Shown here piece by piece: positions 14,966 to 40,236 of a stretch of DNA of 61,858 bases. The notes beneath the pieces are model-generated. The model was not told where the DNA came from, did no database searches, and saw only the letters and a list, made by a program, of their open reading frames with translations. Source of the DNA: Acidobacteriota bacterium. GTDB taxonomy: Bacteria > Acidobacteriota > Aminicenantia > Aminicenantales > Aminicenantaceae. Numbering within the stretch: position 1 is the stretch's first letter; every line of letters starts with the position of its first letter. The stretch is from positions 1 through 61,858 of the forward strand of contig DAOVDI010000002.1 of NCBI GenBank assembly GCA_030669585.1, read 5' to 3'. Made by a program: the position numbers and the translations under genes.

Positions 14966-15337
14966 TTATTGGTTGAAAACATTGTTGATCGCCAATTTTA
15001 ATTCGTCTTTACCAAAAGATTTTATAAAATAAAAAAATATGTCTTGCTCTCTGACTTTTGCTTCCAGCTGTTTTGTGTTTTTTTTTGTCGTCATTATAAT
15101 TTTCATGCCGGGGGAAATATTCTTAAGGATGTTAACCGCCTCATAACCTTTCATTTCAGGAAGGTTAACATCGATTATCAGACATCCAAAATTCCTCATA
15201 GTGATTTTAATTACAGCATCGGTCAAACATTTGCCAGTTTCTGTTTTATAATTAAGATCTGTTAAGTAGGAAGAAAGACTGTTTCTGTCGTTATCATCCG
15301 GATCGATGATCAAAATACTTTTCTCTTCTACAACCAT
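14966..15337 (-). CDS. Single-domain response-regulator-like protein (REC)
   Basis: 123 aa. Motifs ILIIDPDDND, LIIDVNLPEMKG and a CheY-like length. The first acidic pocket is slightly atypical (DPDD). Confidence 0.7.
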   Translation of the reverse strand: MVVEEKSILIIDPDDNDRNSLSSYLTDLNYKTETGKCLTDAVIKITMRNFGCLIIDVNLPEMKGYEAVNILKNISPGMKIIMTTKKNTKQLEAKVREQDIFFYFIKSFGKDELKLAINNVFNQ

Positions 15338-15366: not shown

Positions 15367-15382
15367 TGCAATTATTGTGCCA
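15367..15382 (-). promoter_or_regulatory. Sigma-54 (-24/-12) promoter, consensus match
   Basis: The minus strand reads TGGCAC-aataa-TTGCA. This matches TGGCAC-N5-TTGCW exactly, about 30 nt upstream of the ATG at 15337. Confidence 0.65.
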
Positions 15383-18184: not shown

Positions 18185-18194
18185 AGTATCTCCC

Positions 18195-20189: not shown

Positions 20190-20205
20190 TGCAAAATCTA
20201 TGCCG
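20190..20205 (-). promoter_or_regulatory. Sigma-54 (-24/-12) promoter candidate for the group-3b hydrogenase operon
   Basis: The minus strand reads cGGCAT-agatt-TTGCA. GG and GC have the correct 12-nt register. About 78 nt upstream of the ATG at 20113. Confidence 0.55.
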
Positions 20206-25255: not shown

Positions 25256-26235
25256 TTGACAGTCTCCATTCTTTTTCTTCTTAATATTGATGATGGAAGG
25301 CTGAATCGATAGAATGTTCCCGCTGGATCGACGATCGTGTTAACGATCTTTTCAATTTCTTCCTCATCATCTGAGTCCAGAAGTGATGCAAAGGCGCCTA
25401 GGAATTTTGCTCCCTGGTCGTAGACCTGGTCGGTAGGGCCGAAACAGCCTCTGCAGGGCATATTTCCGAGAATACAGCGTTCTTCGCATCCTGACCGGGT
25501 AGCAGGCCCCATACAGATAATCCCCTGGGCCAGGAAACATTTTTCATTGTCCATCTCGACTTCCCAGGGTCTTTTGACCGCTTTTATCGCCAGCTTTTCC
25601 GGTTTGGAATCATTGCGGCCACAGTCGTCGCAGAGAGATTTGTTTGGAGAAAGGACTGCTCCTTTGGAGGGGAGTTTCCCTTCCAGGATCGCTGTTATGG
25701 CGGTCATGATCAGATGTTTTGGGGGGGCGCAGCCCGGTAGATAATAATCCACATCGATCACCTGATCAAGTGTATAAACTGTGTCATAAAACCGGGGAAG
25801 AGTAAGTTCCTTGCCGTCTTCCATAATATGCTTTTCCTGGGGAATTGTTCCTTCAGGGTTGTCTGTGGATGGGGATGTGTGATATGAACTGTTAAAGATG
25901 GTCTTCCTGTTCCAAAAGTTAGCAAGTCCGGGGATACCGCCCAGATGGGAGCAGCTTCCAAAAGCAACGACAAGACCGGATTTCCGGCGCAGGAGGTTTA
26001 CCATTTCTTCCTGTTCTGAATTCCTGACAGCACCATTGATAAAACTTACAGCAATGGATCCGTCTTCCATTGCTTCTACATCCGTTTTTTTAAAATCCAT
26101 GGCAACCGGCCAGAATACGATATCAACAGCAGCTGTGACTTTTAATATGTCCTCTGCCAGGTCTATTACAGCTTCTTCACATCCGCCGCAGGATGCACAC
26201 CAGTAAAATGCGACTTTAGGCTTCTCTGTACTCAT
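25252..26235 (-). CDS. mvhG: [NiFe] hydrogenase small subunit, Mvh-type
   Basis: 327 aa. Motifs WCASCGGCEE, FGSCSHLGG, YLPGCAP and distal Cys motifs. No Tat signal, so it is cytoplasmic. Confidence 0.8.
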   Translation of the reverse strand: MSTEKPKVAFYWCASCGGCEEAVIDLAEDILKVTAAVDIVFWPVAMDFKKTDVEAMEDGSIAVSFINGAVRNSEQEEMVNLLRRKSGLVVAFGSCSHLGGIPGLANFWNRKTIFNSSYHTSPSTDNPEGTIPQEKHIMEDGKELTLPRFYDTVYTLDQVIDVDYYLPGCAPPKHLIMTAITAILEGKLPSKGAVLSPNKSLCDDCGRNDSKPEKLAIKAVKRPWEVEMDNEKCFLAQGIICMGPATRSGCEERCILGNMPCRGCFGPTDQVYDQGAKFLGAFASLLDSDDEEEIEKIVNTIVDPAGTFYRFSLPSSILRRKRMETVK

Positions 26236-26659
26236 TGATGTCTCCTTTCATAATATTTAATGGTCCTAATTCTTTGATCTGTTCTGTGAATTCGTCGCAT
26301 ACATTCTGGAATTTAGCGCCTTCAGCAGCTGAAACCCATTCCAGTCTGAGCCGTTCTTTTTCTATACCGAACTGTTCAAGCATTTTTCTTAAAAGGCGAT
26401 GTCGTCTCAAAGCTTTATAGTTTCCTTCTTTGTAGTGGCAGTCTCCTGGATGACACCCTGAAATGAGGATGCCGTCCGCCCCCTCTTTAAATGCTTTTAT
26501 CACAAACTGAGGGTCAACACGTCCGCTGCACATAACTCGAATAATTCGTATATTCGGAGAATATGTCATTCTGGCAGTTCCGGCAAGGTCTGCACCTGTA
26601 TAGGAACACCAGGTGCATAGGAAACCAATTAGTGTGGGATCGAAATTCTCGCTACTCAT
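26216..26659 (-). CDS. mvhD: MvhD/FlpD-type hydrogenase iron-sulfur (2Fe-2S) subunit
   Basis: 147 aa. Motifs FLCTWCSYTGADLAG, VMCSGRVDP and GCHPGDCHY. GGAGG RBS upstream. Confidence 0.85.
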   Translation of the reverse strand: MSSENFDPTLIGFLCTWCSYTGADLAGTARMTYSPNIRIIRVMCSGRVDPQFVIKAFKEGADGILISGCHPGDCHYKEGNYKALRRHRLLRKMLEQFGIEKERLRLEWVSAAEGAKFQNVCDEFTEQIKELGPLNIMKGDINEYREA

Positions 26660-26680: not shown

Positions 26681-28438
26681 TTATTCAATAAATATTCCTT
26701 CAATTTCGGCAAAAATCTGTTTATCACGGAAATGCTTCTGCTGGGCCGCTCCACTTGGACAGGCTGAAACGCAGGTACCGCAGCCCTTGCACAAAGCATC
26801 GTTGATTTCAGAGATTCCTTTTTCTTTATCATAAGTGATCGCTGTAAAAGGACAAAGTCCCACGCAGATCTGGCAGCCGGCGCAGAGCTCTTCATCGATC
26901 TCGGCTGTGATTGGTTCGAGATCAAACTTTCCCTTATCAGCCAGAGCAAGGGCCTCGCATGCCGCAGCACCAGCCTGTGCGACAGTATCGGGAATGTCTT
27001 TGGGTGACTGGCATGTTCCTGCCAGAAAGATCCCGTCAGAGAAAGTGGATACCGGAGCTAGTTTGGGGTGTCTCTCCAGGAAAAAGCCATCCTGGCTGCA
27101 GGAGATGTTGAAGACTTTGGCGATCTGGTTGGAATCTGTTCCGGGTTCCAGCCCGGTTGCCAGGATGACCATGTCCACCGGGATGCGCCTGACAACTCCG
27201 ATCAATGTGTCTTCTACGCGGATAATAAGCTTTCCTTCTTCTTCTTTGCTGAGAGCCATGTCACTTACTTCGGAGACACGTCCCCGGATGAATTTTGTCC
27301 CTTCATGAAGCAGCCGGTGATAAAATTCCTCATATCCTTTGCCGAAACACCTCATATCGATATAAAAATCGTAGATGTCTGCAGATGTCTTTTCTTTGAG
27401 TAAATGTGCAAATTTCAGAGAATACATACAGCAGACGCGTGAACAGTACTCATTGTAATTTTCGTCTCTAGACCCAACACAGTGGATGATGCCCACGGAC
27501 TTGGGTTCCTCGCCGTTGGATAAGAGAATCTTTCCTCCTGTCGGACTTGATGCATTAACAAGTCTTTCGAATTCCAGAGCAGTGATGACATTATCTAAAC
27601 GGCCATATCCATACGCTGGGATCAAGGAAGGGTCAAAGGATTTGAACCCGGATGCCAGAATTATCGAACCCACTTCGAGCTCGATTTCTTCATCCTGAGC
27701 TTCATGGTCGATAGCTTCTTTTTGACAAACATCTGAGCAGATCTTACATTCCCCCGTCTTAAAGTGGATACAGGCTTCTTCATCGATAAAAGGCACCATG
27801 GGGACAGCCTGCCGGATGGGAACGCGAATAGCGGTTGAAGGACCGAGATCCAGTTCGCTGTGAATTACTTTTCGGCCGTGAAGGTCTTCGACCGTAATGG
27901 CTCCGGTAGGACAGAAAAATGCACAGGCCGTACAGCCGATACATGCTTCGGACTGCTCACCGAATGGGGTGCAGACTTCCCGGTGCTGGCCTCTCTGGAG
28001 AAAACTGATGGCACTGGCACCCACAATATCTTCACAGGCCCTTACGCACATTCCGCAGAGGATACATTTTTCATCCGGATCTTTGATCTTGAAACGGGTT
28101 TTTTCTATACCCAATTCCTTCGCCAGTTCCTGGACAGGTACTGCGGCAGGTGCTTGAGCAAGGAGCATTTCGACATTCATTCTGCGTGCAAAAAGAGCTT
28201 TATCCGAAGCGGTCTGGATTTCCATCCCGTTCTTGACCAGTGTGTTACAGCTTGTGACGAGTTCAGAACCTTTGCCTGAAATGGATTCCACAACACAGAC
28301 CCGGCAGGCTGCATAGGGCTCCATTAGGGGGTGATAGCAAAGGGTTGGAATTTTGATCTCTTGCTGTTCAGCCGCTTGAAGAATTGTTATTCCATCCTCG
28401 ACCTGGATTGTTTTTCCGTCTATCTTTAAATTCACCAC
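26681..28438 (-). CDS. Fusion protein: HoxU/NuoG-N-terminal-like 2Fe-2S/4Fe-4S module joined to the C-terminal two-thirds of HdrA
   Basis: 585 aa with a GTG start after AAGGAG. Residues 1 to about 200 carry IDGKTIQV…CYHP…CRVCVVE…C (2Fe-2S) and CILCGMCVRAC. From about residue 165 there is HdrA-like sequence: CIGCTACAFFCPTGAI…RQAVP…CKICSDVC…VGSIILASGFKSFDP…CVGSRD…YCSRVCCMYSLK…FLAGTCQSPKDIPDTVAQ. Then a C-terminal 2x[4Fe-4S] (CAGCQICVGLCP, CKGCGTCVSACP). Confidence 0.75.
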   Translation of the reverse strand: MVNLKIDGKTIQVEDGITILQAAEQQEIKIPTLCYHPLMEPYAACRVCVVESISGKGSELVTSCNTLVKNGMEIQTASDKALFARRMNVEMLLAQAPAAVPVQELAKELGIEKTRFKIKDPDEKCILCGMCVRACEDIVGASAISFLQRGQHREVCTPFGEQSEACIGCTACAFFCPTGAITVEDLHGRKVIHSELDLGPSTAIRVPIRQAVPMVPFIDEEACIHFKTGECKICSDVCQKEAIDHEAQDEEIELEVGSIILASGFKSFDPSLIPAYGYGRLDNVITALEFERLVNASSPTGGKILLSNGEEPKSVGIIHCVGSRDENYNEYCSRVCCMYSLKFAHLLKEKTSADIYDFYIDMRCFGKGYEEFYHRLLHEGTKFIRGRVSEVSDMALSKEEEGKLIIRVEDTLIGVVRRIPVDMVILATGLEPGTDSNQIAKVFNISCSQDGFFLERHPKLAPVSTFSDGIFLAGTCQSPKDIPDTVAQAGAAACEALALADKGKFDLEPITAEIDEELCAGCQICVGLCPFTAITYDKEKGISEINDALCKGCGTCVSACPSGAAQQKHFRDKQIFAEIEGIFIE

Positions 28439-28449
28439 GTTTTATCTCC

Positions 28450-30282
28450 TTAATCGACCTTTACTGCACCGAATTTACATACGTCATAACACACGCCGCA
28501 TTTTGTACATTTATCCTGAATGATTTGGTGGGGTTGATTCCTTTCGCCTAAAATTGCGTCTGAGGCGCAGTTGCGCCGGCAGAGGTCACATCCATGGCCA
28601 GTGTTAACGCATATATCTTCATCAATGGTATAGACGTTCAGGTCCCTGCAGGTGTGAGCCGGGCATTTTTTATCCCTGATATGGGCTTCGTATTCGCTGC
28701 GGAAATATTTCATGGTTGTCAGGACAGGATTTGGTGCGGTTTTTCCAAGGCCGCACAGAGCGGAATCCTTGATGGAGACAGCCAATTCCTCCAACAGCGT
28801 AAGGTCTTCATCTGTTCCCTCTCCCTTGGTGATTCGTGTCAGAATATCAAGCATAGCCTTGGTCCCTTCCCTGCAGGGAGTACATTTCCCGCATGACTCG
28901 TCCTGGGTAAAAGAGAGAAAATATCGGGCTACATCCACCATGCAGGTGTCTTCGTCCATTACTACCATCCCGCCTGAGCCCATCATTGATCCGGCGTCGG
29001 ACAGGCTTTCATAATCAATAGGAAGATCGATCTTCTCTTTCGGAATACAGCCTCCTGACGGGCCTCCCGTCTGAACGGCCTTGAATTCTCTGCCTCCGGG
29101 AATACCGCCTCCAATGTCATAGATGATCTCTCTAAGAGTGATCCCCATGGGTACTTCGACCAGGCCGGTGTTATTGATCTTTCCCACCAGGGAGAAGACC
29201 TTTGTACCCTTGCTGGTTTCGGTTCCGATATGGGAATACCATTTGGCTCCCCGGTTGATAATGGGCGCGATATTGGCCCAGGTCTCTACATTGTTGATAA
29301 GTGTCGGGCATCCCCAAAGGCCTTTCTCGGCAGGATAGGGGGGACGCGGTTTGGGCTCTCCCAGCCGCCCCTCGATCGACGACAGCAGGGCGGTCTCTTC
29401 TCCGCATATAAATGCGCCGGCCCCGCGTACGATTTTGATATCAAAGTCCATCCCGCTGCCCAGTATGTTTTTTCCCAGAAGGCCGTACTCCCTGGCGTCA
29501 TCCAGGGCTTTGTACAGCCTGTTCAGGGCCAGCGGGTATTCATTCCGGACATAGGCATATCCCTGTGTTGCATTGATAGCCTTGGCTCCGATGACCATGC
29601 CTTCGATGACGGAATGGGGATCGGCTTCAAGAATACTCCGGTCCATAAAGGCTCCTGGGTCTCCTTCGTCCCCGTTACAAACAAGATATTTTACATTCCC
29701 GTTGGAGCTGACGGCATTGCTGACGAATTCCCATTTTAATCCTGTTGGAAATCCCCCTCCCCCTCGGCCCCGAAGTCCTGATTTTTGGATTTCAGATCTG
29801 ATATCTGAGGGAGACATACTGGTCAGAGCTTTAGCCATCGCCTTGTAACCGTCCCGGGCAATGTATTCATCGATTTTTTCCGGATCTATCAATCCCCTGT
29901 TTCTCAGGGCGATAAGGACCTGTTTTTTGAAAAAGTCAATATCACTCAGTACAGGGATGGGTGTTTTTTCTTCGGGAGGGATATACATCAATTTTTCAAC
30001 CGGGCGGCCTTTAAGAAAGTGCTCCTCAACAAGATGAGGAATATCTTTCGTCGTTAGGGTCTGATAAAAAATATTTCCCGGCTGGACAACCAAAAGCGGA
30101 CCCCTCTCGCAAAAACCATTGCATCCGGTCGTGACGATAAGAACTTCATTATCCAGGTCCTGTTTTTTTATTTCCGTTTCCAATGCTTCTTTGATCTCAA
30201 ACGAATGATTGGAAACGCAGGCGGTGCCGGCACAAACCATGAGATGGACTCGGTATTCTTTTTCCTTTTTTATTTTTGCCAT
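28450..30282 (-). CDS. NuoF-like NAD(P)H-binding FMN/Fe-S subunit (HydB/HndC/HoxF-like)
   Basis: Start taken at MAKIKKEKEY (30282, AAGGA RBS); the track start is 30315. N-terminal thioredoxin-like 2Fe-2S domain. NAD/FMN motifs GDEGDPGAF and GRGGGGFPTGLKW. N3 cluster CGKCTPCREG. C-terminal 2x[4Fe-4S]. Confidence 0.85.
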   Translation of the reverse strand: MAKIKKEKEYRVHLMVCAGTACVSNHSFEIKEALETEIKKQDLDNEVLIVTTGCNGFCERGPLLVVQPGNIFYQTLTTKDIPHLVEEHFLKGRPVEKLMYIPPEEKTPIPVLSDIDFFKKQVLIALRNRGLIDPEKIDEYIARDGYKAMAKALTSMSPSDIRSEIQKSGLRGRGGGGFPTGLKWEFVSNAVSSNGNVKYLVCNGDEGDPGAFMDRSILEADPHSVIEGMVIGAKAINATQGYAYVRNEYPLALNRLYKALDDAREYGLLGKNILGSGMDFDIKIVRGAGAFICGEETALLSSIEGRLGEPKPRPPYPAEKGLWGCPTLINNVETWANIAPIINRGAKWYSHIGTETSKGTKVFSLVGKINNTGLVEVPMGITLREIIYDIGGGIPGGREFKAVQTGGPSGGCIPKEKIDLPIDYESLSDAGSMMGSGGMVVMDEDTCMVDVARYFLSFTQDESCGKCTPCREGTKAMLDILTRITKGEGTDEDLTLLEELAVSIKDSALCGLGKTAPNPVLTTMKYFRSEYEAHIRDKKCPAHTCRDLNVYTIDEDICVNTGHGCDLCRRNCASDAILGERNQPHQIIQDKCTKCGVCYDVCKFGAVKVD

Positions 30283-30295
30283 TATCCACGTCCTT

Positions 30296-30685
30296 TCAGT
30301 AATCGGTTTTTTCACTGCCTATGCCCAGGGCATATTTTTCAACGATTTTGCCGCCGAGCACATGTTTTTCCAGAATTTCCTTAGTTTTAGCTCCTGTCAA
30401 TTCTACATATTTCACCGGGGCCTGCCCTTTGATTTCAACAGTCAGCATGGGTTCTTTGCTGCACAGCCCGGCACACCCGGAATTTGTCAGGAGGATTTCG
30501 GTTATATCTTGGGCTTCGATTTCTTCCATCAGAGCGGCCATGATGCCGCGTGCTCCTGCTGCTATTCCGCAGGTTCCCATATGGACAGTGATCTTTGCCC
30601 TGAATTCACTGTCGCCGCGGAGCATGGTTGTTTTTTTTGTTTTTTCTCTAATTTCTTCAAGATCTTCAAGTGTGAGTTTTGGCAT
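30296..30685 (-). CDS. Thioredoxin-like [2Fe-2S] ferredoxin (HndB/HydD-like)
   Basis: 129 aa. Motifs VHMGTCGIAAGA and SGCAGLCSKEP. Confidence 0.75.
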   Translation of the reverse strand: MPKLTLEDLEEIREKTKKTTMLRGDSEFRAKITVHMGTCGIAAGARGIMAALMEEIEAQDITEILLTNSGCAGLCSKEPMLTVEIKGQAPVKYVELTGAKTKEILEKHVLGGKIVEKYALGIGSEKTDY

Positions 30686-31160
30686 CTTTTTCCTCCTTCC
30701 TTCTTCCTTCTTTATATTTTTTTAATACGCCTGGAACCTTGGCCTGAGAGATCTTTCCATATACGTCCTCTCCAATCATTACAACAGGAGCAAGGCCGCA
30801 GCATCCGACGCAGTGAACTTCATCCAGGCTGAATTCCTTGTCTTCCGTGGTTTCCCCGGATTTGATGTTAAGTTCTCTTTCAAGTTTTTCGAGGACCAAC
30901 TGAGCGCCGCGTACATGGCAGGCTGTTCCCAGACAGACATGAATAGGATGTTTGCCTTTGGGTTCCAGGCTAAAAGCATTAAAAAATGTTGCCAGGCTCA
31001 ATACGCGACTGAGAGGTATATTCATCTCGCGGGAAACCTGCAGGATGGCTTCCTTCGGCAAATATCCGAGGGCCTCTTGGATATCCTGCAGAATAGAGAT
31101 AATTGAACTCTGGTCAGTTTCATAATTCGCAAGGATTTGGGAGATTTTTTCTGGATTCAT
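30666..31160 (-). CDS. NuoE-like [2Fe-2S] subunit (HydC/HndA/HoxE-like)
   Basis: 164 aa. Motif SIISILQDIQ. Cluster motifs VCLGTACHVRG and CVGCCGLAP. Confidence 0.85.
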   Translation of the reverse strand: MNPEKISQILANYETDQSSIISILQDIQEALGYLPKEAILQVSREMNIPLSRVLSLATFFNAFSLEPKGKHPIHVCLGTACHVRGAQLVLEKLERELNIKSGETTEDKEFSLDEVHCVGCCGLAPVVMIGEDVYGKISQAKVPGVLKKYKEGRRKEEKDAKTHT

Positions 31161-31705
31161 TTTTCCCTCCTAATAAGGTTTAACTTTTTATCTATTTTAG
31201 TTTTTAAGATGTTGATTACCTCTGGGGAGTTGATCGGAATGCCATCAAGTTGTTTTTTTATTTCCTTTGTGTCAAATGTGAATTCGGATCGATCGGATTT
31301 GGCTGAAAAAAAGATGTCAATATCCGGATGGCCTATGATCAAAGTGGCAAGGGTCTGTGATATGTCTCCTAGAGGCTTGGTGTCAATGTGGTCTGCCTTA
31401 AAAGTTGCTTTTATATTTGTTCCCTGACCGGCTTTGGAATTAATGACAAAACTGCCTTCCGCGCTTCTGGCGGCTTCGGCAAGCAATGACAGCCCAAGGC
31501 CGAATTTTCTTGTCTTTTTAGTTGTAAAAAAAGGATTTAATGCAGCATTCATGGTATCTTCCGTCATTCCTTTCCCGTCATCTGTGATTTCCAGGCTGAG
31601 CAGATTGTTTTTGCTGTCCTTCTTGATAGAGATTTCGATATTTCGGGCCTCTGCCCGAATCGAATTCTCAGCGATATCAAGAATGTGCAATGATAGATCC
31701 TCCAT
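31157..31705 (-). CDS. Stand-alone GHKL (histidine-kinase-like) ATPase, no H-box domain
   Basis: 182 aa. N box HILDIAENSIRA. G1 DDGKGM. G2 GLGLSL. It sits between the PHP and NuoE-like genes. Confidence 0.7.
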   Translation of the reverse strand: MEDLSLHILDIAENSIRAEARNIEISIKKDSKNNLLSLEITDDGKGMTEDTMNAALNPFFTTKKTRKFGLGLSLLAEAARSAEGSFVINSKAGQGTNIKATFKADHIDTKPLGDISQTLATLIIGHPDIDIFFSAKSDRSEFTFDTKEIKKQLDGIPINSPEVINILKTKIDKKLNLIRREK

Positions 31706-31710
31706 GTTTA

Positions 31711-32442
31711 TTAATGTAAGATTTTTCGTCCTTTTCTATTCAAAAATGCCATTTTAATTTCTTTGGCGGTTCCTTCTTTCATATAAAATTGTGTGTATCC
31801 TTTGCCGATATCGTCTGGAAAATGAGCATCGGATGATTGGATGATGGGAAGGGGAAAGTCATATTGGGATGCGGCCTTCTCAAATGACATCCTTCGGGAA
31901 ATTTCAAGGGCATCCAATTCAAGATTGTCCGGAAGGAATCCAAGCTGCCCGAGAAGACTGAATGATTCTCTGTCTATGTGAGCTGCAATGGCGATTCCGT
32001 TAAAGTCATGAATGAGATGGATAACTTTATCTATGGTAAAAGTTGAAGCGCCGATCAGGAGTTTTTTATTGAAATGAAGGACTTCATCATTTTTATTGAC
32101 GACGACCTGCATGCCGAATGCTTCCTCGTCGTTTTCGCCCGGGAGATTTTTATAGATCAATTCCTGAAGATGTAGAGCAGAACTCACATTGTCGAAAAGG
32201 GCCAGAATGTGGATTTCTTCGAGAGATGTGACTTCAATCCCTGGTAGTACGCGGATCTCATATTCAGCGGCTGCCTCTATGACAGCAGGAACATTTTCGG
32301 CCGAATTATGATCGCAAATGCCCAGAATATCAATGGACGATTCTCTGGCCTTCATGGCTATCGTTGTCGGCGACATCTTTAAATCCGCACATGGAGAAAG
32401 GCATGTGTGGATATGAAGATCCGCCTTAAATATTTTAAGCAT
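31711..32442 (-). CDS. PHP-domain metal-dependent phosphoesterase
   Basis: 243 aa. Motifs ADLHIHTCLSPC, ICDHNS, AAHIDR and SSDAH, the His/Asp motifs of the PHP fold. Confidence 0.75.
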   Translation of the reverse strand: MLKIFKADLHIHTCLSPCADLKMSPTTIAMKARESSIDILGICDHNSAENVPAVIEAAAEYEIRVLPGIEVTSLEEIHILALFDNVSSALHLQELIYKNLPGENDEEAFGMQVVVNKNDEVLHFNKKLLIGASTFTIDKVIHLIHDFNGIAIAAHIDRESFSLLGQLGFLPDNLELDALEISRRMSFEKAASQYDFPLPIIQSSDAHFPDDIGKGYTQFYMKEGTAKEIKMAFLNRKGRKILH

Positions 32443-32443
32443 T

Positions 32444-32785
32444 TTATTTTTTGGTATCTAAAAGGGCATACAATTTACCTGATATAACAAATGCCGAATC
32501 CTGAGTTGATAGAATGGGGATGTTTTCTTCCTCTGCTTTTTTCAGTGTTTCTTCGTCCGGCTTTCGATTATTCACGAGGATGATTCCAGAAAGTTCTTTG
32601 AGTTTTGCTACTGCTACGATGTTGAGGTGAATTTGAAGCGTGATCCACAATTCTTTTTCTTTGCTGTTAGCAATGACATCACTCAGAAGATCGCTTGAAT
32701 AACCGAAGCTGACCTTGTCTTCCAGGTTTTTATCGGCACTTAAGATTACAAGGTTTAATTTTTCTACGATTTGTTTAAGTGTCAT
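32444..32785 (-). CDS. DRTGG-domain protein
   Basis: Start placed at MTLKQIVEKLNL (32785), about 113 aa. The track ORF extends to 32908 inside the upstream gene. Motifs SDLLSDV and ILVNNRKPDEE…IPILST resemble the paralog at 34576. Confidence 0.6.
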   Translation of the reverse strand: MTLKQIVEKLNLVILSADKNLEDKVSFGYSSDLLSDVIANSKEKELWITLQIHLNIVAVAKLKELSGIILVNNRKPDEETLKKAEEENIPILSTQDSAFVISGKLYALLDTKK

Positions 32786-34139
32786 TTTTTTCTTCCTTTT
32801 TGCCTTTATCATTTGAGTCATCAGTGTCAGTGCGCCTCTCTTTGGCCGATTCGAGCTGCAGCTTGTAATCATCCGCAAGCTTGAAAATACAATCCGTGAT
32901 CTCGGCATCGGCTTTTACCACATCTTCAGCAAATGTCATGCATGTAGGGGAGCCGCAAGCGCCGCAGTCGATTTTGGGGAGGGATTCATATATTTCTTCT
33001 TTTTCCCTCATCTTTTGAATGGCGGCGGCAAGATTGCTGTCCAAAGGTTTAAGAGGCCTTGGTTCTGCCTTTCGTTTCATAGAAAAGTAATTTTGAGCAA
33101 ACAGTTTCCTGATATACCGTATATCCGAACATGCTTTAATTTCTTCGTATTCCAGTCTTTCAACGATCTTGAGGATTTTGTTGTAGCTGATGTATGAGTT
33201 TTCTACTGTCAGGGATCCACCTACGCATCCTTGTGGGCAGGAATAAGCCTCGATAAAGTCAATGTGGTTCAGTTTTCCCTGTTCAATATCATTAAATACT
33301 TTTATAATCTCGCTGATCCCGGAAACAGCCAGGGAATTTTTAAGCCGCAGGGTCCGGCTGATTCCTCCGACCATGGCCCATCCTATTCCAAGAATGCATA
33401 TGTTTTGCAGAGATTTTTTATAGCTTCGGCGTTCGACGCTTTCCATGGCTGAAAGCAGGGGTCCATAGATGTCCGAGATGGAGATGGCTCCATCAAGATA
33501 GGATCTTCCTTTTTCCGCAGGCTGTTTGATTGAGAGCATTTTAACCGGGCATGGAGTGATATAAAAAGTCCCGATATCCTTTTCATCGAGTCCGTATTGA
33601 GCCGATTTTTGTTTTTTAACCTCACGGCCTGCGATCTCTCTGGGGACGTTCAGAGATATGATGTGGTCGATCAAAGATGGGTATTTGACCTGGATCAAGC
33701 GTACAACCGTGGGGCAGGAATTGAAGATGACCGGCTTTGGACCTTTGTGTTCATTGAGATATTCATTTATAGCAAAGCTGACTTGTCCGCAGGTGTTTAT
33801 AAGGTCAAAAGCGTCATCAAATCCCAATTTTTTCAAGCCGTTCAATATCTCATATGGAAGAATATCCCTTCCGAATTGAGCAATAAGCGCAGGAGAAGGA
33901 ATGGCAACTGTGTGCCTGAATTTGGAGAGTTCACCGAAGGGGTCAGTTAAGGGAACGATAGCTCCCTCTGGACAGATCGTAATACATTCGCCGCAGTCGA
34001 TACATCTGTCTTCCAGGATAATGGCTTTTCCATTCCTTACCCGGATCGCTTGTGTCGGGCAGACGTGCATACATTTCATACGTCCGTTGCATTTGTCCTC
34101 TTCTATACGGATAGAGTGATAGTAGTGGCTGTTGTTCAT
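32775..34139 (-). CDS. [FeFe]-hydrogenase-like protein with degenerate H-cluster motifs (putative sensory, HydS/Hfs-like)
   Basis: 454 aa. N-terminal 2x ferredoxin-type Cys motifs. L1-like FNSCPTVV (canonical TSCCPxW). L2-like ITPCPVKM (canonical MPCxxKxxE). L3-like EAYSCPQGCVGGS (canonical ExMxCxxGCxxGGGQP). Extra C-terminal CGACGSPTC motif. Confidence 0.75.
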   Translation of the reverse strand: MNNSHYYHSIRIEEDKCNGRMKCMHVCPTQAIRVRNGKAIILEDRCIDCGECITICPEGAIVPLTDPFGELSKFRHTVAIPSPALIAQFGRDILPYEILNGLKKLGFDDAFDLINTCGQVSFAINEYLNEHKGPKPVIFNSCPTVVRLIQVKYPSLIDHIISLNVPREIAGREVKKQKSAQYGLDEKDIGTFYITPCPVKMLSIKQPAEKGRSYLDGAISISDIYGPLLSAMESVERRSYKKSLQNICILGIGWAMVGGISRTLRLKNSLAVSGISEIIKVFNDIEQGKLNHIDFIEAYSCPQGCVGGSLTVENSYISYNKILKIVERLEYEEIKACSDIRYIRKLFAQNYFSMKRKAEPRPLKPLDSNLAAAIQKMREKEEIYESLPKIDCGACGSPTCMTFAEDVVKADAEITDCIFKLADDYKLQLESAKERRTDTDDSNDKGKKEEKNDT

Positions 34140-34579
34140 TTTTTCCCGTTTAAATAAAATGTGACATCAAGGGTCGTCCCTTTTCCCGGCGAGGAAGAAA
34201 TATCAAGTTTATCTGCATTCCTTTTAATGTTGGGAAGTCCCAATCCTGCGCCGAATCCCATTTCGCGCATTTCATCGGTTGCGGTCGAGTATCCTTCCTG
34301 CATGGCCAGTTCGATATTGTTAATACCCTGGCCTTTATCCTTGAATGTAATATTGATGGCCGATAGGCTCAGACAAAGAATAACTTCCGCATGGTCCGCA
34401 TACATGACGATATTCATTTCCGCTTCGTAGGACGCGATGGCCGCCCTGCGTATGATGGCCGGAGCGATCCCGATCTCTTCAAGAATCTCTTTGATTTTTG
34501 TAGATACGATGCCGGCATGGCTGAAATTTCTTCCCTGGACATTAAATTTTTTTATGAATCCATTTCCCTGGCATATCAT
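34136..34579 (-). CDS. Stand-alone GHKL ATPase, anti-sigma-factor/Ser-kinase-like (SpoIIAB/RsbW-like)
   Basis: 147 aa. Motifs EAEMNIVMYA, DKGQGI and GAGLGLPNI. No HisKA domain. Confidence 0.7.
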   Translation of the reverse strand: MICQGNGFIKKFNVQGRNFSHAGIVSTKIKEILEEIGIAPAIIRRAAIASYEAEMNIVMYADHAEVILCLSLSAINITFKDKGQGINNIELAMQEGYSTATDEMREMGFGAGLGLPNIKRNADKLDISSSPGKGTTLDVTFYLNGKK

Positions 34580-34935
34580 GTTTTTATGGTCCTTTCAACA
34601 CCGGCAAGGCCGTGGTTGTACAACAGGCCGCAGGCTTTGTACATCATAAATTTTGTGGACAGCAGGGGAATGTTTTTTTGCCCGGCCAGTTCGATTCCAT
34701 TGCTATCGGGCTTTTTGCCCCGCACATAGATGACAGCATTGGCGCCAATGATGTCTGCTGTCCGTACTGTTTGTATATTGGACAGCCCTGTAAGCAAAAG
34801 GAGTCCCGGTTGACCGAAAGCGAGTACATCGCTCATTAAATCCGATCCTCCGGCACACTCGATCTCTACATCAAGGTAGTTCTCTCCGCAGATAAGATCA
34901 GCCTCCAGAATTTCTTTTATTTCTTTTAACTTCAT
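34576..34935 (-). CDS. DRTGG-domain protein
   Basis: Start placed at MKLKEIKEIL (34935), immediately after the hdrA-N stop; the track start is 34953. Motifs GGSDLMSDVL, LLLTGLSN and IYVRGKKPD…IPLLST. Confidence 0.65.
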   Translation of the reverse strand: MKLKEIKEILEADLICGENYLDVEIECAGGSDLMSDVLAFGQPGLLLLTGLSNIQTVRTADIIGANAVIYVRGKKPDSNGIELAGQKNIPLLSTKFMMYKACGLLYNHGLAGVERTIKT

Positions 34936-34936
34936 T

Positions 34937-35788
34937 TTAGTGTTCTTTTTCAATCTTTTTAATGATCATATCTCCTTTCCGAATGATCCTTTCCGATGGT
35001 GTGATGGTCGTAGGACAATTATTCCAGCAGTCGCCGCAGCCGTTGCATTTATCGACGTCAACATACCGGGCTTTTTTCTTAATCTTTACTTTAAAATTGC
35101 CGACAAATCCCGATATCTCCTCTACTTCACTCCAGGTCAAAAGCTCAATGTTTGGATGTTTTCCGACTTCAGACATTTTCGGGGTTAATATGCAGGCAGA
35201 GCAGTCTAGGGTCGGAAACGTTTTATCAAGCATAGACATATGGCCGCCTATGGAAGATTCTTTTTCTACCAAGTAGACTTTTTTGCCGGAACTGGCATAG
35301 GTCAATGCAGCATGAATACCTGCGATACCGCCCCCGACGATCAGTACTTCCGGGCGTACCGGGACTTCTTTTTTCATCAAAGGGTCATGCAGGGCGACGC
35401 GTCTGACGGCGGCAGAGATCAGGGCTTTGGCCTTTTTAGTGGCTGCATCCGGATTTTCTGTCACCCAGGAAACGTGCTCCCGAATGTTCGCCATCTGGAA
35501 GAAAAAGGGGTTCACTCCCCCTTCGCTCGTTGCTCCTCTGAATGTTGGTTCATGCATCAAAGGGGAACAGGACGCTACAACGACGCGTGTCAAGTTGTGC
35601 TCTTTAATTTGTTCCTTGATCAATTCCTGTCCCGGGTCAGAGCACATGAATTTATATTCTTTAGCCACAATAACGTTATCAAGTTTAGAGGCGAATTCAG
35701 CGACGTCATAGACATTTACTTTGTTCGAAATGTTAGTGCCGCAGTGGCATATAAATACTCCTATTCTCGGTTGTCCGTTTTGATTCAT
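34937..35788 (-). CDS. Truncated HdrA-like protein: N-terminal Fe-S domain, FAD-binding start of the thioredoxin-reductase fold, and one 4Fe-4S motif
   Basis: 283 aa. Motifs IGVFICHCGTNIS and VVVASCSP. Motif NPFFFQMANIREHVSW. Motif VLIVGGGIAGIHAAL…EKESSIGG. Motifs TLDCSACILTPK and CNGCGDCWNNCP, then a stop. Canonical HdrA is about 650 aa. Confidence 0.75.
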   Translation of the reverse strand: MNQNGQPRIGVFICHCGTNISNKVNVYDVAEFASKLDNVIVAKEYKFMCSDPGQELIKEQIKEHNLTRVVVASCSPLMHEPTFRGATSEGGVNPFFFQMANIREHVSWVTENPDAATKKAKALISAAVRRVALHDPLMKKEVPVRPEVLIVGGGIAGIHAALTYASSGKKVYLVEKESSIGGHMSMLDKTFPTLDCSACILTPKMSEVGKHPNIELLTWSEVEEISGFVGNFKVKIKKKARYVDVDKCNGCGDCWNNCPTTITPSERIIRKGDMIIKKIEKEH

Positions 35789-36669
35789 TTCGCCCCTCCA
35801 TTATTGATTTTTTGCCACATGTTTTTTAATGAGATGATCGATCGTTTAAAACCGAGGTCCTCTTTAGGAATTCCAAGGGCCAATCCCATGAGCTGTGTAA
35901 AATAGAGAACAGGGATTTTATAATCTTCTTTGTATTCTTTAGAAACCTTGGCTGCCATGATCTCGAGGTTGAACTGGCAGAGTGGGCACAGGGTCACAAT
36001 GACGTCTGCGCCCTTTTTTTTAGCCTCTTTGAGAAGGACATAATTTAATCCTTTTCCGATGTTTTCAATTGTTCCTGTTAGTGAACCGCCGCAGCACAAG
36101 GTTTTAGCTGAGTAATCCACGGCCTCAGCGCCCATGGCTTCCATGAGATTATCCATTGTTTCCGGGTAATCCGGATCGTCGAAGTCCGTGTAAGGCCTTA
36201 CCAACTGGCAGCCGTAATAGCACGCCACTTTGAGTCCGGTGAGCTTATTTTCGACTTTTTCCTTGATGGTATCCAAGCCTATTTCTTGGATAAATATTTC
36301 CAGGGGATGTCTGACTTTCACAGTGCCTTTGTATTCGCATCCTGTTGTTTTTAGATCGGTTAAAACCTTTTGGGCTTTATTTGATCCTTCTGTTAAAAAG
36401 GTGTTGGATTTTTTCATCGTCAGGAAACATCCGGCGCAGGGAGCCATGACATGACAGCCTGCCTTCTCGGCAATAGACAAGTTGCGACCGCATAAAGCAG
36501 CGGCTATTGTATCATCAACAGCGAAGTATGCTGTAGCTCCGCAGCAGTTCCAGTCATTCATTTCCTCGATTTCCATTCCGATCTTTTTTAGAACAGGCAG
36601 AAGGGATTCTTCGTAGTGTTTTGAACCGCCTTTTAGAGAGCAACCCGGATAATAGATATATTCATTCAT
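35785..36669 (-). CDS. hdrB: Heterodisulfide reductase subunit B (two CCG domains)
   Basis: 294 aa. Motifs YYPGCSL, NCCGATAYF, YYGCQL and LCCGGSL. Confidence 0.85.
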   Translation of the reverse strand: MNEYIYYPGCSLKGGSKHYEESLLPVLKKIGMEIEEMNDWNCCGATAYFAVDDTIAAALCGRNLSIAEKAGCHVMAPCAGCFLTMKKSNTFLTEGSNKAQKVLTDLKTTGCEYKGTVKVRHPLEIFIQEIGLDTIKEKVENKLTGLKVACYYGCQLVRPYTDFDDPDYPETMDNLMEAMGAEAVDYSAKTLCCGGSLTGTIENIGKGLNYVLLKEAKKKGADVIVTLCPLCQFNLEIMAAKVSKEYKEDYKIPVLYFTQLMGLALGIPKEDLGFKRSIISLKNMWQKINNGGAK

Positions 36670-37247
36670 TTTGCGTTCTCCTTAACTTCATTTAACAAAG
36701 TGCGCAGTTGCTTCCGGTTTTTGATCTTTTCTTTTTTTAAGCTCATTCGCCCAGTCTTCATCAGATTGATGCCCAGGGGGGCCATTTTTAACATACCGAG
36801 TGGATTTTTTAACTTAATATACATGTTCACAACAAGCCATAGTTCTGAATTCCGCCCGTTCTTCGCGATGAGCTTGCACATTTCTTGAGCAAGGACAGGA
36901 GGCTGAAGCCTGTTGGGATAAACTTTTTCTTCGATCGCTTTCCGTTTTAATGCATACATAACATCCGTGATCTTGATCTTTGCGGGACAGCGGACCTGAC
37001 ATGTATAACAAGAGGCACACAACCAGATGGTAAAACTCTTAAGAGCTTCTTCCTTGAATCCGTTTTTGATAAAGGAAATGATCTTCCTGGGGGGGTGGTC
37101 CATATAGACTGCCATAGGGCAGGAACTGCTGCATGCGCCGCACTGTATGCACTTGTCGATTTCTTCACATCCTGACATATCCTTAATTTCGTCTAAAAAA
37201 TTCTTGTCCAGCTCTTCTTCAAACTTAACCTTTCTCTGGATATCCAT
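36666..37247 (-). CDS. hdrC: Heterodisulfide reductase subunit C (2x[4Fe-4S])
   Basis: 193 aa. Motifs CIQCGACSSSCP and CASCYTCQVRCP. 4-nt overlap with hdrB. Confidence 0.85.
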   Translation of the reverse strand: MDIQRKVKFEEELDKNFLDEIKDMSGCEEIDKCIQCGACSSSCPMAVYMDHPPRKIISFIKNGFKEEALKSFTIWLCASCYTCQVRCPAKIKITDVMYALKRKAIEEKVYPNRLQPPVLAQEMCKLIAKNGRNSELWLVVNMYIKLKNPLGMLKMAPLGINLMKTGRMSLKKEKIKNRKQLRTLLNEVKENAK

Positions 37248-37497: not shown

Positions 37498-37526
37498 ATA
37501 ATATTTGTGAAATTTTGACTTGTCAA
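37498..37526 (-). promoter_or_regulatory. Candidate sigma-70 promoter for the hdr-mvh block, overlapped by a palindrome
   Basis: The minus strand reads TTGACA-17 nt-TATTAT. TCACA-N7-TGTGA (37494-37510) spans the -10. This would imply a leader of about 240 nt before hdrC. No sigma-54 match was found in 37248-37710. Confidence 0.3.
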
Positions 37527-37710: not shown

Positions 37711-38403
37711 ATGAGGAGAAAAATATTTTCCATCATCGGAGTTGTTCTTTTAATACTTGCCGTTCAGGGGTGTTCATCACATCCTGAACAGAATTTATTA
37801 GAGAGATATTTTCATGCTATCGCCCTGAATGATGCACAGACGATGGCAACAATGTCTCTCCAGCCTCTGAAGATCGAAGCTGATAGCTGGGAAATCATCC
37901 AGGTCAGTGAGGAATTGGTCAATGAAGCATTTCTTCCAGAGTTGAACAAAGTTGAGCTGGATTTGAAAAAACAAAAAGATGAGTCTATTGTCTTCACACT
38001 GGATGCCAGTGATGAGCTTGATGATGCAAAATTCGAACTCGAAAATGCACGGACAAGAAATGCGAAAAGAGCAGCCCAGAAAAAGATCGATGAACTGCAG
38101 ATAAAATATGACGAGATATATGAAAAACATAAAAACATCCAGAAGCAGTATAATGAAGCCAAAGCTGCCGCACAGAAGGAAGAAAATATTTCCATGTTCT
38201 CTTTGAACGCTGGTGAACTTCCCAATATAAGAGATTTTTTAGGCGATATGTCAGCTAAAGAAGTGGATATTAAATGTGTCCTGAAGGATGGGACGGAAAA
38301 AAATTATCGCGTTTTTATGCGAAAGTATGTTCTTAAGGATGAAGCTGCCGGTATCACACGTCGCGGAAGATGGATTATTACAAAGTTTGAAGTCTTGAAA
38401 TAA
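37711..38403 (+). CDS. Hypothetical lipoprotein with a coiled-coil region
   Basis: 230 aa. Signal peptide plus lipobox (LLILAVQGC|SS). The central region is Lys/Glu/Gln-rich and helix-like. No family recognised. Confidence 0.6.
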   Translation: MRRKIFSIIGVVLLILAVQGCSSHPEQNLLERYFHAIALNDAQTMATMSLQPLKIEADSWEIIQVSEELVNEAFLPELNKVELDLKKQKDESIVFTLDASDELDDAKFELENARTRNAKRAAQKKIDELQIKYDEIYEKHKNIQKQYNEAKAAAQKEENISMFSLNAGELPNIRDFLGDMSAKEVDIKCVLKDGTEKNYRVFMRKYVLKDEAAGITRRGRWIITKFEVLK

Positions 38404-38862: not shown

Positions 38863-40236
38863 TCAATCAAAAGTAAAATTCCCATTCATGAGTATATCCA
38901 GGCAGGCATCCACCACCTTTTTATCATAGAGAATACCTTGGTTATGTTTGATCTCATCTATCGCCTGTTGAATAGGTAATGCCGGCCGGTAGGGCCTGTG
39001 ACTTACCATGGCTTCGATGACATCAGCCACAGCCAGAATGCGTGCTTCTAAGTGGATATCATTTCCTTTTAGGCCGTCAGGATAACCGCTGCCATCCATT
39101 CGTTCATGATGCTGGAGGACAAACTCCTGGATCGGCCACGGAAATTCGATGGATTTGAGGATATCATATCCGACCTTGGGATGGGTCTTTATAATATTAA
39201 ATTCCACATCTGTGATATTTCCGGGTTTGCTGAGTATTTCCGCAGGGATATAGATCTTTCCGATATCATGAAGCTCTCCGGCCATTTTGAGGCCCTCGAT
39301 CCTATCCTTTGTAAACCCAAATCGTTCTGCTATCGCCACTGCCAGTTTGGTCACCCTGTGCTGGTGTCCGGCAGTGTAAGGGTCCCGTTTTTCAATTGTG
39401 AATGCCATGGCGTCCATCGTTCCCTGCATTGTCCTTTTCTGTTTTTCCCAGCTTTCTATAAGTTTTTCCTCCGCGATTTTTCTTCTGGAGATGTTGGAAA
39501 AAGCCAGGATAGTACCGGAGATACGGTTTTCTTCCTGCTTTATTGGTGCGATCCTGAATTCGATGGGTGTTTTGTTTCCATTTTTAGAGATCAGGATTGC
39601 TTCCGAAAATACATCTGTTTCTTTTGCCTCAAGAACAGGCTGAAGAAGTCGATTAAATCTCTTCCCACTCTTTTCATCTCGCACTAAAAAAATCTTCTCA
39701 AGTGGAGAATTGAGAGCATCCATCTGTTTCCATCCTGTGAGAGACTCGGCTTTTGGGTTCATAAAAGTCGTATTTCCCTTATCGTCTGTAGCGATGACTC
39801 CATCAGCAATGCTTTCCAGCATTGTAAAAAGCCATTGTTCTCTTTTTTTGAGTTCTTGCTCCATTTTAAATTTATATAGTGCGATCTCGATCGTTGTCTG
39901 GAGTTCACGTTCTTCAAAGGGTTTCAGAAGATATCCGAAGGGAGCGGTTTCCTTGGCGAGCTGAAGAGTCGTTTCATCTGTATAGGATGTCAGATAAACA
40001 ACTGGGATGTTGTGTTTTTTGTAGATCACATCGGCGGCCTTCACTCCGCCTGATGTGCCTTGCAGCATGATATCCATCAGAACCAGTGAGGGATTTTTCT
40101 TTTTTGCAATATTGACTGCTTCTTTGGCCCTAGTTGTAACTCCTACGACATCATAATTCAGACTGAGAAGCATGTTCTGGATGTCATGGGCGACGATGCT
40201 TTCGTCCTCGACAACAAGAATAGTTGATTTTTTCAT
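38863..40236 (-). CDS. Response regulator with REC, PAS and HD-GYP (c-di-GMP phosphodiesterase-type) domains
   Basis: 457 aa. REC (LVVEDES…LMDIML…KPF). PAS-like middle region. Motifs HDIGKIYIP and HHERMDGSGYPDGL. Confidence 0.85.
   Translation of the reverse strand: MKKSTILVVEDESIVAHDIQNMLLSLNYDVVGVTTRAKEAVNIAKKKNPSLVLMDIMLQGTSGGVKAADVIYKKHNIPVVYLTSYTDETTLQLAKETAPFGYLLKPFEERELQTTIEIALYKFKMEQELKKREQWLFTMLESIADGVIATDDKGNTTFMNPKAESLTGWKQMDALNSPLEKIFLVRDEKSGKRFNRLLQPVLEAKETDVFSEAILISKNGNKTPIEFRIAPIKQEENRISGTILAFSNISRRKIAEEKLIESWEKQKRTMQGTMDAMAFTIEKRDPYTAGHQHRVTKLAVAIAERFGFTKDRIEGLKMAGELHDIGKIYIPAEILSKPGNITDVEFNIIKTHPKVGYDILKSIEFPWPIQEFVLQHHERMDGSGYPDGLKGNDIHLEARILAVADVIEAMVSHRPYRPALPIQQAIDEIKHNQGILYDKKVVDACLDILMNGNFTFD

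Follow-up and report, generated by a model that had tools for sequence, protein, structure and literature searches.

The window analyzed here is a 61,858-nucleotide (nt) stretch of contig DAOVDI010000002.1 (GenBank assembly GCA_030669585.1), from an Acidobacteriota bacterium of the Aminicenantaceae. Its minus strand carries a 16-gene operon that runs from 37247, the start of hdrC, down to 23795, the end of the [NiFe]-hydrogenase large subunit gene (Table 1). In the database, the nearest relatives bear the name Candidatus Aminicenantes. Six genes at 31157-34935 interrupt the redox genes of this operon and are referred to below as the cassette. They encode two small DRTGG proteins (DRT1 and DRT2), two stand-alone GHKL ATP-binding proteins (GHKL1 and GHKL2), a PHP-family phosphoesterase, and an [FeFe]-hydrogenase homologue resembling the HydS sensors. 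The cassette is most likely a redox or H2 sensing and signaling device that travels mostly with a NuoEF (Bfu) core. An initial annotation had placed these genes in the same families, and Pfam confirms the assignments, with DRT1 recovered by hhalign and an AlphaFold2 (AF2) model.

Translational coupling links all six cassette genes to the redox genes on either side. Across the region, including the junctions with the N-terminal half of HdrA and with NuoE, neighboring genes overlap by 4, 4, 11, and 4 nt or are spaced by 1, 1, and 5 nt. The 11-nt overlap is that of the sensor and DRT2 reading frames, and one of the 1-nt spacers separates the stop codon of the HdrA N-terminal half from the start of DRT1. 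Co-transcription is argued because coding overlaps flank the cassette on both sides, between two halves of one protein. The DRT1 start is taken as the ATG at 34935, and a longer open reading frame (ORF) beginning with TTG extends to 34953. For DRT2, the mechanically called ORF begins at 32908, and the length of 113 amino acids (aa) is set from orthologues. A scan of the operon gives no more terminator-like sites than expected by chance. No sigma-54 promoter is found 5′ of hdrC, and sigma-54 matches over the whole window are fewer than chance.

Table 1. Genes and sites of the cassette-bearing operon and its surroundings in the window.
Feature	Coordinates	Strand	Basis or remark
Cassette: DRT1, single-domain DRTGG protein, 119 aa	34576-34935	-	weak Pfam DRTGG, hhalign, AF2/Foldseek
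Cassette: GHKL1, stand-alone SpoIIAB-like ATP-binding protein, 147 aa	34136-34579	-	Pfam HATPase_c and HATPase_c_2, TIGR01925
Cassette: HydS-like sensor, Group D (M2e)-type [FeFe]-hydrogenase homologue, 454 aa	32775-34139	-	Pfam Fer4 (two), Fe_hyd_lg_C, and PF04060
Cassette: DRT2, second DRTGG paralogue, 113 aa	32444-32785	-	Pfam DRTGG and Hpr_kinase_N
Cassette: PHP-family metal-dependent phosphoesterase, 243 aa	31711-32442	-	Pfam PHP and PHP_C
Cassette: GHKL2, ATPase, 182 aa	31157-31705	-	Pfam HATPase_c and HATPase_c_3
HdrC-like	36666-37247	-	Pfam, NCBIfam
HdrB-like	35785-36669	-	Pfam, NCBIfam
HdrA N-terminal half, 283 aa	34937-35788	-	NCBIfam HdrA2 profile positions 1-258
NuoE/HydC-like (BfuC)	30666-31160	-	Pfam (171 bits), NCBIfam
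Small 2Fe-2S ferredoxin	30296-30685	-	Pfam, NCBIfam
NuoF/HydB-type subunit	28450-30315	-	Pfam, NCBIfam
Fusion protein, 585 aa: HydA/NuoG-type iron-sulfur (FeS) domain and C-terminal HdrA half	26681-28438	-	NCBIfam, PDB matches
MvhD-like	26216-26659	-	Pfam FlpD; NCBIfam VhuD
[NiFe] small subunit, Mvh/Vhu (group 3c) type	25252-26235	-	Pfam Oxidored_q6; NCBIfam VhuG
[NiFe] large subunit, Mvh/Vhu (group 3c) type	23795-25255	-	Pfam NiFeSe_Hases; NCBIfam VhuA, 438 bits
Candidate operon promoter, sigma-70-like TTGACA-17-TATTAT	37498-37526	-	consensus match only, 11/12; ~250 nt 5′ of hdrC
Cache-HAMP histidine kinase and sigma-54-dependent response regulator	20368-23701	-	between two hydrogenase operons, directly downstream of the cassette operon
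Sigma-54-like -24/-12 site	20190-20205	-	2 mismatches; upstream of the group 3b operon
Second [NiFe] hydrogenase operon, group 3b (sulfhydrogenase) type	15663-20113	-	
Group 3b alpha subunit, 580 aa	15663-17405	-	C-terminal HycI-like maturation-protease domain, residues 449-579
Perfect sigma-54 consensus TGGCACAATAATTGCA	15367-15382	-	just 5′ of the 123-aa ORF
123-aa ORF	14966-15337		
Response regulator with PAS and HD-GYP	38863-40236	-	upstream of the operon
230-aa protein without a family match	37711-38403	+	upstream of the operon

The HydS-like protein comprises an N-terminal domain with two [4Fe-4S] clusters, an H-domain, and a C-terminal four-cysteine cluster domain, and it has no PAS domain. 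All 16 of its cysteines are invariant or nearly so across 52 representatives. The equivalents of the H-cluster cysteines and of Lys358 are present (C142, C197, K200, C301, and C305), as they are in 82 of 82 sensor sequences. Three Group A positions are substituted, with the proton-relay C299 replaced by S141, M353 by T195, and M497 by Y299. These sequence features place the protein among the Group D (M2e) putative sensory hydrogenases.

The Group D protein TamHydS, from Thermoanaerobacter mathranii, binds the H-cluster and reacts with H2 like a sensor but is a poor catalyst (PMC8163306). Its properties are sensor-like and its transducer has not been identified (PMC8163306; PMC13104023); the TamHydS papers pose the question of signal relay and later weakened the hypothesis that implicates the C-terminal cluster. 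The proton path of Group D runs through E252-E289-S249-D265, and the E252V and E252D variants of TamHydS abolish H2 oxidation (Cabotaje et al., PMC10407848). With positions mapped via a Thermoanaerobacteraceae orthologue of identical spacing, E252, D265, and E289 of TamHydS correspond to I260, S273, and E297 of the window protein, such that the first Glu and the Asp are lost and E289 is kept. E252 is retained in 23 of 25 sensors linked to [FeFe] enzymes but in none of the 26 others (0/19 window-like, 0/6 GcvH-type, and 0/1 [NiFe]-only). In a neighbor-joining (NJ) tree, the window-like, GcvH-type, and [NiFe]-only sensors form one clade, apart from the [FeFe]-linked clade of Firmicutes.

The two ATPases share the N, G1, and G2 boxes (N56, D81xGxG85, and G108-G112 in GHKL1; N14, D42xGxG46, and G69xG71 in GHKL2). 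Neither gives a match to HisKA, and at 147 and 182 aa both are too short for a DHp domain or H-box. Conservation and lengths thus bear out the initial description of both as GHKL proteins without the phosphoacceptor parts of histidine kinases. The further proposal that both resemble SpoIIAB/RsbW-type kinases holds for one of them. GHKL1 matches TIGR01925 (spoIIAB) at 45 bits in NCBIfam, and its family profile retrieves SpoIIAB from the PDB at E 6e-10, with the next match at 8e-4. E52, N56, DxGxG, and GFGAGxG are conserved in this family. From its sequence, GHKL1 is the only SpoIIAB-like ATPase of the pair.

GHKL2 is a Bergerat fold followed by a small C-terminal domain. Its N-box begins at about residue 10 within a MutL-like motif I, LDIAENSIRA, and LDxxENSxxA is invariant in the family, including D10, E13, N14, and S15. 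In GHL ATPases (MutL, TopoVI-B, or Hsp90 type), motif I reads (E/D)xxENSxxA, with an acidic base four positions ahead of the Asn, and a second domain follows the Bergerat fold. The PDB matches obtained by sequence are exclusively histidine-kinase catalytic and ATP-binding (CA) domains. In Foldseek comparisons with the AF2 model (predicted local distance difference test, pLDDT, 87), such CA domains align only to the first ~100 residues. The best Foldseek matches of the model are the N-terminal regions of MutL, PMS2, and TopoVI-B, with ~180-200 columns aligned at template modeling (TM) scores of just 0.5-0.58. By this model, GHKL2 looks like a small MutL/TopoVI-B-type ATPase. With sequence matches to histidine-kinase CA domains and a fold nearest to MutL/TopoVI-B, the protein is rejected as a SpoIIAB-like kinase.

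The DRTGG proteins are clear paralogues, their families aligning by hhalign with a probability of 99.9% (E 2e-33). DRT2 scores 27 bits against Pfam DRTGG, and DRT1 scores 17 bits, under the cut-off. The AF2 model of DRT1 (pLDDT 94) matches the DRTGG structure 2ioj (AF1212) in Foldseek with a TM score of 0.80. It also matches 3l2b, the DRTGG domain of a Clostridium perfringens CBS-pyrophosphatase, and, more distantly, the N-terminal domains of HPr kinase and MurE. No STAS structure is among the listed Foldseek matches of the model, and the different fold rules out DRTGG as a STAS equivalent. The conserved motifs of DRT1 are DLMSDVL (32-38), TGL (49-51), and RGKxP (72-76), and that of DRT2 is DLLSxV (33-38). 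The Ser of DL(M/L)SDV is the sole conserved hydroxyl residue common to both families. The Joint Genome Institute label “predicted transcriptional regulator” on DRTGG proteins stems from likeness to the DRTGG part of SpoxR-type regulators and not from a helix-turn-helix (HTH) domain.

The PHP protein has a complete set of metal ligands, D8, H10, H12, D44, H45, E70, H78, H155, D205, and H207, all invariant or nearly so. Its profile matches EndoQ, 3e0f, 7ug9, 2anu, 2yb1, and PolC in the PDB. Among these, 3e0f is a phosphoesterase that binds adenosine monophosphate and phosphate, 7ug9 is an RNase AM-like exoribonuclease, and 2yb1 is a pAp phosphatase. The protein tyrosine phosphatases CpsB and YwqE give no match to the profile at E<=0.01 in the PDB, and a CpsB-type protein phosphatase is rejected for want of sequence support.

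A search of one genome per GTDB species with a five-sequence alignment as query yields 80 loci. The window proteins were mapped onto six-frame translations of these loci, and gene order is counted in the 76 with enough flank. The order DRT1-GHKL1-HydS-DRT2-PHP is kept in 69 of the 76, across many phyla, and GHKL1 lies directly upstream of HydS in every one. GHKL2 is found within 2.6 kb in 59 loci, and 56 encode NuoE/F. Six Acidobacteriota genomes have an in-frame fusion of PHP with GHKL2 (L023, L025, L026, L029, L036, and L054; e.g., L023:11667-12923), and a DRT1-GHKL1 fusion occurs once (L005). Apparent GHKL1-HydS and HydS-DRT2 fusions are ORF-calling artefacts and are not in frame.

The enzyme genes beside the cassette are those of [FeFe] HydA, of Hdr/Mvh [NiFe] complexes, or of GcvH-domain proteins, which answers the question of catalytic subunits that the initial annotation left to comparative genomics. 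Among 81 distinct loci, 25 are Group A [FeFe] HydABC operons, mostly of Clostridia, with the order cassette-NuoE-GHKL2-Fdx-NuoF-HydA; the statement of the initial annotation that such gene sets accompany HydABC operons is thus supported for Firmicutes. In these Firmicutes, the GHKL2 gene sits between nuoE and fdx-nuoF. The cassette-linked Group A HydA of three loci (L032, L052, and L073) has the P1 motif TSCSPGW, not the textbook TSCCP. Window-like operons account for 13 complete loci and 6 truncated by contig ends, from Aminicenantes, Terriglobia, Bryobacterales, Vicinamibacterales, Chlorobiaceae, Ignavibacteriales, and Bacteroidetes metagenome-assembled genomes. In four loci, BfuBC occurs with a BfuA fused to GcvH-like domains, and no hydrogenase is encoded within 21 kb. 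One locus (L001) has a two-subunit [NiFe] enzyme with HycI and no NuoEF, 15 have NuoE/F with no third module seen, and 17 have the cassette alone, with no enzyme genes within 10 kb.

Two of these contexts merit description. The GcvH-linked loci (L007-L010; e.g., L008:4066-6337) combine the cassette with NuoE-Fdx-NuoF, a BfuA-type GcvH (lipoyl-carrier-like) fusion, and further GcvH-domain proteins, and they may represent an undescribed type of Bfu. In L001:6015-13005, from another Aminicenantes genome, the cassette and GHKL2 follow the two-subunit [NiFe] hydrogenase and the HycI protease, with neither NuoEF nor Hdr; its sensor is 74% identical to that of the window. An association of the module with the NuoEF-type diaphorase rather than with the catalytic subunit is accordingly supported by 56 of 76 loci with varied third modules and is limited by L001 and the 17 cassette-alone loci.

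The operon that houses the cassette in the window does include [NiFe] hydrogenase genes, as first described, but is better termed a hybrid of an Hdr-Mvh (group 3c-like) system with a NuoEF/Bfu system, in which hdrA is split. Of the Hdr-Mvh complex, VhuA, VhuG, VhuD, HdrB, and HdrC are present, and HdrA is divided between two chains. The 283-aa protein aligns to residues 3-261 of Methanothermococcus thermolithotrophicus HdrA (E 1e-99). The 585-aa protein matches HdrA 275-652 (NCBIfam HdrA2 positions 262-640) with its residues ~197-582, while its residues 1-190 form a BfuA/HydA-type domain with [2Fe-2S] and two [4Fe-4S] clusters (PDB 9mqx_A and 8a6t_A; FeFe_hydrog_A6 positions 1-209). The break, at HdrA residues ~261/275, falls between the two Cys motifs of the inserted ferredoxin domain, leaving the first motif on the N-terminal half and the second on the fusion protein. 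The NuoF-type subunit comprises 2Fe-2S_thioredx (17-98), Complex1_51K, NADH_4Fe-4S, and two Fer4 domains (564-618). It and the NuoE-type subunit show the features by which the Bfu survey defines BfuB and BfuC (PMC9304861).

From these alignments, it is inferred that the inserted ferredoxin domain has to be rebuilt from the two HdrA chains, with the HydA-derived FeS domain then connecting HdrA and the NuoEF core. Together, the genes would encode a hybrid Hdr-Mvh[NiFe]-Bfu complex. Between the hdrA halves of an hdrCB(A)-mvhDGA operon lie the cassette, hydC, fdx, hydB, and the HydA-type N-terminal domain. Because the genes of this block are those that make up the 5′ part of a HydABC operon, the simplest history is a recombination of an hdrCBA-mvhDGA operon with a cassette-bearing hydCBA operon. 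The split-hdrA layout recurs in 19 species-level genomes, those of the window-like operons above. Such an enzyme type is not found in the part of the Bfu survey examined (PMC9304861). A search of the open-access literature for hybrids of Hdr, NuoEF, and Mvh gave only generic “MvhADG/HdrABC” annotations; this plain label is also given to the group 3c Hdr-linked hydrogenases of a related lineage in at least one metagenome study (PMC7509429). Within the limits of that search, the split-HdrA layout appears not to have been described previously.

The reading preferred here is that the six genes form a conserved accessory cassette of a Group D-type HydS sensor, concerned with signaling rather than turnover and co-transcribed with the enzyme that it serves. 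Its probability is put at roughly 0.45. The HydS-like protein would report H2 or the electron pressure on the complex via its H-cluster site and three accessory [4Fe-4S] clusters. GHKL1 would read the state of the sensor, its role as direct partner being proposed because the adjacency of the two genes is invariant, and would then phosphorylate or sequester one of the DRTGG paralogues. The candidate acceptor is the Ser of DL(M/L)SDV, chosen since no other conserved hydroxyl is common to both paralogues. PHP and GHKL2 may act together, as their fusions suggest, as a second, physically coupled arm with a part in resetting or relaying the signal. GHKL2 may touch the NuoE/F module, given that it sits among those genes in Firmicutes, and the output would act on the NuoEF/Bfu module or on its expression.

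Several observations weigh against this reading. The kinase-substrate pair is a guess, because no STAS protein, PP2C phosphatase, or sigma factor accompanies it. GHKL2 resembles ATPase switches and not kinases, and the closest solved relatives of PHP act on nucleotides or nucleic acids, not on proteins. Finally, no enzyme genes lie within 10 kb of the cassette in 17 loci. The partner-switching circuit envisaged in the initial annotation fails in three of its four defining parts (STAS, PP2C, and sigma factor), with no sigma factor recognized by Pfam in or beside the operon.

In a rival reading, a small nucleotide (for example, pAp, an oligonucleotide, or a dinucleoside polyphosphate) would be produced or degraded by PHP, with the DRTGG proteins as its receptors and the GHKLs as ATP-driven switches. 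The PHP profile matches EndoQ, 3e0f, 7ug9, and 2yb1 and no PHP-type protein phosphatase, the DRT1 model resembles the DRTGG domain of a nucleotide-regulated CBS-pyrophosphatase and the N-terminal nucleotide-binding folds of MurE and HPr kinase, and the MutL/TopoVI-B likeness of GHKL2 suits a switch. Nucleotide signaling of this kind is nonetheless unlikely: GHKL1 is specifically SpoIIAB-like, down to equivalents of its catalytic Glu and Asn residues, the cassette encodes neither a nucleotide cyclase nor a nucleotide synthetase, and ligand binding is not established for DRTGG domains. The genes could also serve the assembly or maturation of the NuoEF/Bfu core with no signaling at all; HydS would then act as an FeS scaffold, GHKL2 as a chaperone-like ATPase, and PHP in the processing of a cofactor. 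Many Bfu operons, including those of the characterized HydABC and NiFe-HydABCSL, are described without such genes (PMC9304861), and NuoEF is missing beside the cassette in L001 and 17 other loci, even though the cassette stays with the Bfu core whichever of three third modules is present. Similarly, GHKL2 has Hsp90/MutL-type features and is embedded among structural genes in Firmicutes, but a SpoIIAB-like protein has no obvious role in assembly and TamHydS binds the H-cluster and responds to H2 as a sensor would, which makes this account quite improbable. Least probable is that the HydS-like protein provides a second functional hydrogenase site in an [FeFe] and [NiFe] hybrid enzyme with the small proteins as subunits. 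Archaea are known to have hybrid [FeFe]/[NiFe] complexes that include HydB and HydC (PMC11216029), and the H-cluster ligands and Lys358 are retained in the window protein. However, both the Group A proton path (C299 to S) and the Group D path (E252 to I and D265 to S) are missing, TamHydS is itself a poor catalyst whose E252 variants are worse, and the kinase-like and phosphoesterase genes would be left unexplained.

For the signaling cassette, the nature of the input also has to be weighed. A genuine H2 sensor, functionally analogous to HoxBC-HoxJ, would tune the [NiFe] enzyme to ambient H2. Its location in a hydrogenase operon and the Lys358 equivalent, which is specific to [2Fe] and invariant in the 82 sequences, speak for such a role, and H2 sensing has been proposed for proteins of Groups D and C. 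The [2Fe] site may remain, since this Lys is invariant; a true H-cluster requires HydE, HydF, and HydG. The proton-relay Glu is lost in every sensor not linked to [FeFe] enzymes, however, and in the nearest sister clade the sensor accompanies GcvH-Bfu enzymes without hydrogenase genes in the vicinity; a dedicated H2 sensor is rather unlikely. With the relay Glu lost and sister loci serving non-hydrogenase enzymes, the sequences lean slightly toward redox poise or electron pressure, rather than free H2, as the input in this lineage. Of the H2 or redox sensing originally suggested, the H2 part is thereby weakened and the redox part slightly favored. A more general role would be that the [FeFe]-derived sensor, devoid of its proton path, and its fixed partners control Bfu-type enzymes according to redox state, here an undescribed double-bifurcating enzyme in which a HydA-derived FeS domain would connect the split HdrA to a NuoEF core and an Mvh-type [NiFe] hydrogenase; this proposal is doubtful.

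Action at the post-translational level had been proposed as well. In agreement, Pfam finds no DNA-binding or HTH domain in any cassette protein, and no HTH regulators lie beside the cassette in seven other loci sampled. The proposal is weakened by the Cache histidine kinase and sigma-54 activator adjacent to the cassette operon in the window, a pair that also lies beside it in at least 10 other loci. In the window, the pair seems more likely to serve the adjacent group 3b hydrogenase operon, with its sigma-54-like site at 20190-20205, than the cassette operon. On the other side, the pair of PAS/HD-GYP regulator and 230-aa protein adjoins the window-like operon in L002, L003, and L006, while L001 has only the 230-aa protein.

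Among known systems, TamHydS is the closest in kind. It has the same domain plan, keeps the H-cluster cysteines, and lacks the Group A proton-relay Cys, and in both cases the sensor gene is upstream of NuoEF-type genes. In contrast to TamHydS, the window sensor has a broken proton path, falls in a separate NJ clade, and neighbors an Hdr/Mvh [NiFe]-Bfu system rather than a Group A bifurcating [FeFe] hydrogenase, which is the neighbor in the 25 Firmicute-type loci. Group C sensors such as TmHydS of Thermotoga maritima are likewise hydrogenase-like proteins with altered second-sphere residues, encoded with the hydrogenase they are thought to control. They have a fused PAS domain, instead of which the window has separate DRTGG, SpoIIAB-like, PHP, and MutL-like proteins. 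The Group C HydS of R. albus is reportedly accompanied by Ser/Thr kinase and phosphatase genes.

The SpoIIAB-SpoIIAA-SpoIIE and RsbW-RsbV-RsbU systems share with the cassette an ATPase of the same size as GHKL1 with conserved N-box Glu and Asn. However, the cassette has a DRTGG fold in place of the STAS antagonist, PHP in place of PP2C, and no sigma factor, and the likeness to partner switching is one of analogy, not membership. In the HoxBC-HoxJ-HoxA system, too, a low-activity hydrogenase homologue controls a [NiFe] hydrogenase, as the window sensor would (regulatory [NiFe] hydrogenase is mentioned in PMC8163306). The window sensor is of the other hydrogenase class, and the cassette has neither a PAS histidine kinase nor a response regulator.

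The enzyme itself resembles Bfu (HydABC-type) enzymes in its BfuB-type NuoF with extra clusters, its BfuC, its BfuA-type N-terminal FeS domain, and its use of a third module as the substrate site. The Bfu survey (PMC9304861) describes Bam-Bfu, which combines Bfu with an HdrA-type module, and NiFe-HydABCSL from Acetomicrobium mobile. The window differs in that BfuA shares a chain with the C-terminal part of the split HdrA and the third module is a complete HdrBC with MvhDGA. The archaeal [FeFe]/[NiFe] hybrids (Groups F and G with 3f and 3g; PMC11216029) similarly gather an H-domain protein, a group 3 [NiFe] hydrogenase, and HydB/HydC in one cluster. Their [FeFe] portion is catalytic and forms one chain with the [NiFe] small subunit, whereas the window encodes a separate Group D-like protein in a bacterium, along with Hdr and kinase-like and phosphoesterase partners.

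The literature searched covers the sensor family but does not identify its transducers. A search of the open-access literature for a link between DRTGG proteins and hydrogenases gave nothing relevant, and a review of multimeric [FeFe] hydrogenases does not discuss accessory genes. Within that literature, the association with an Hdr-Mvh [NiFe]-Bfu system, the split HdrA, the systematic loss of the Group D proton relay from sensors not linked to [FeFe] enzymes, and the coupling of PHP with GHKL2 appear to be new.

The question of signal relay in Group D becomes testable with a fixed, phylum-spanning set of candidate transducers, namely, GHKL1, the DRTGG pair with one conserved Ser each, and PHP-GHKL2. 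A natural contrast is also available, in that the proton-relay Glu is kept beside [FeFe] enzymes and lost beside [NiFe]/Hdr or GcvH-Bfu enzymes. For the bacteria that have the split-HdrA layout (Acidobacteriota, Aminicenantes, and relatives of Chlorobi/Ignavibacteria), the operon with its BfuA fusion suggests a new coupling of two known electron-bifurcating modules to a [NiFe] hydrogenase.

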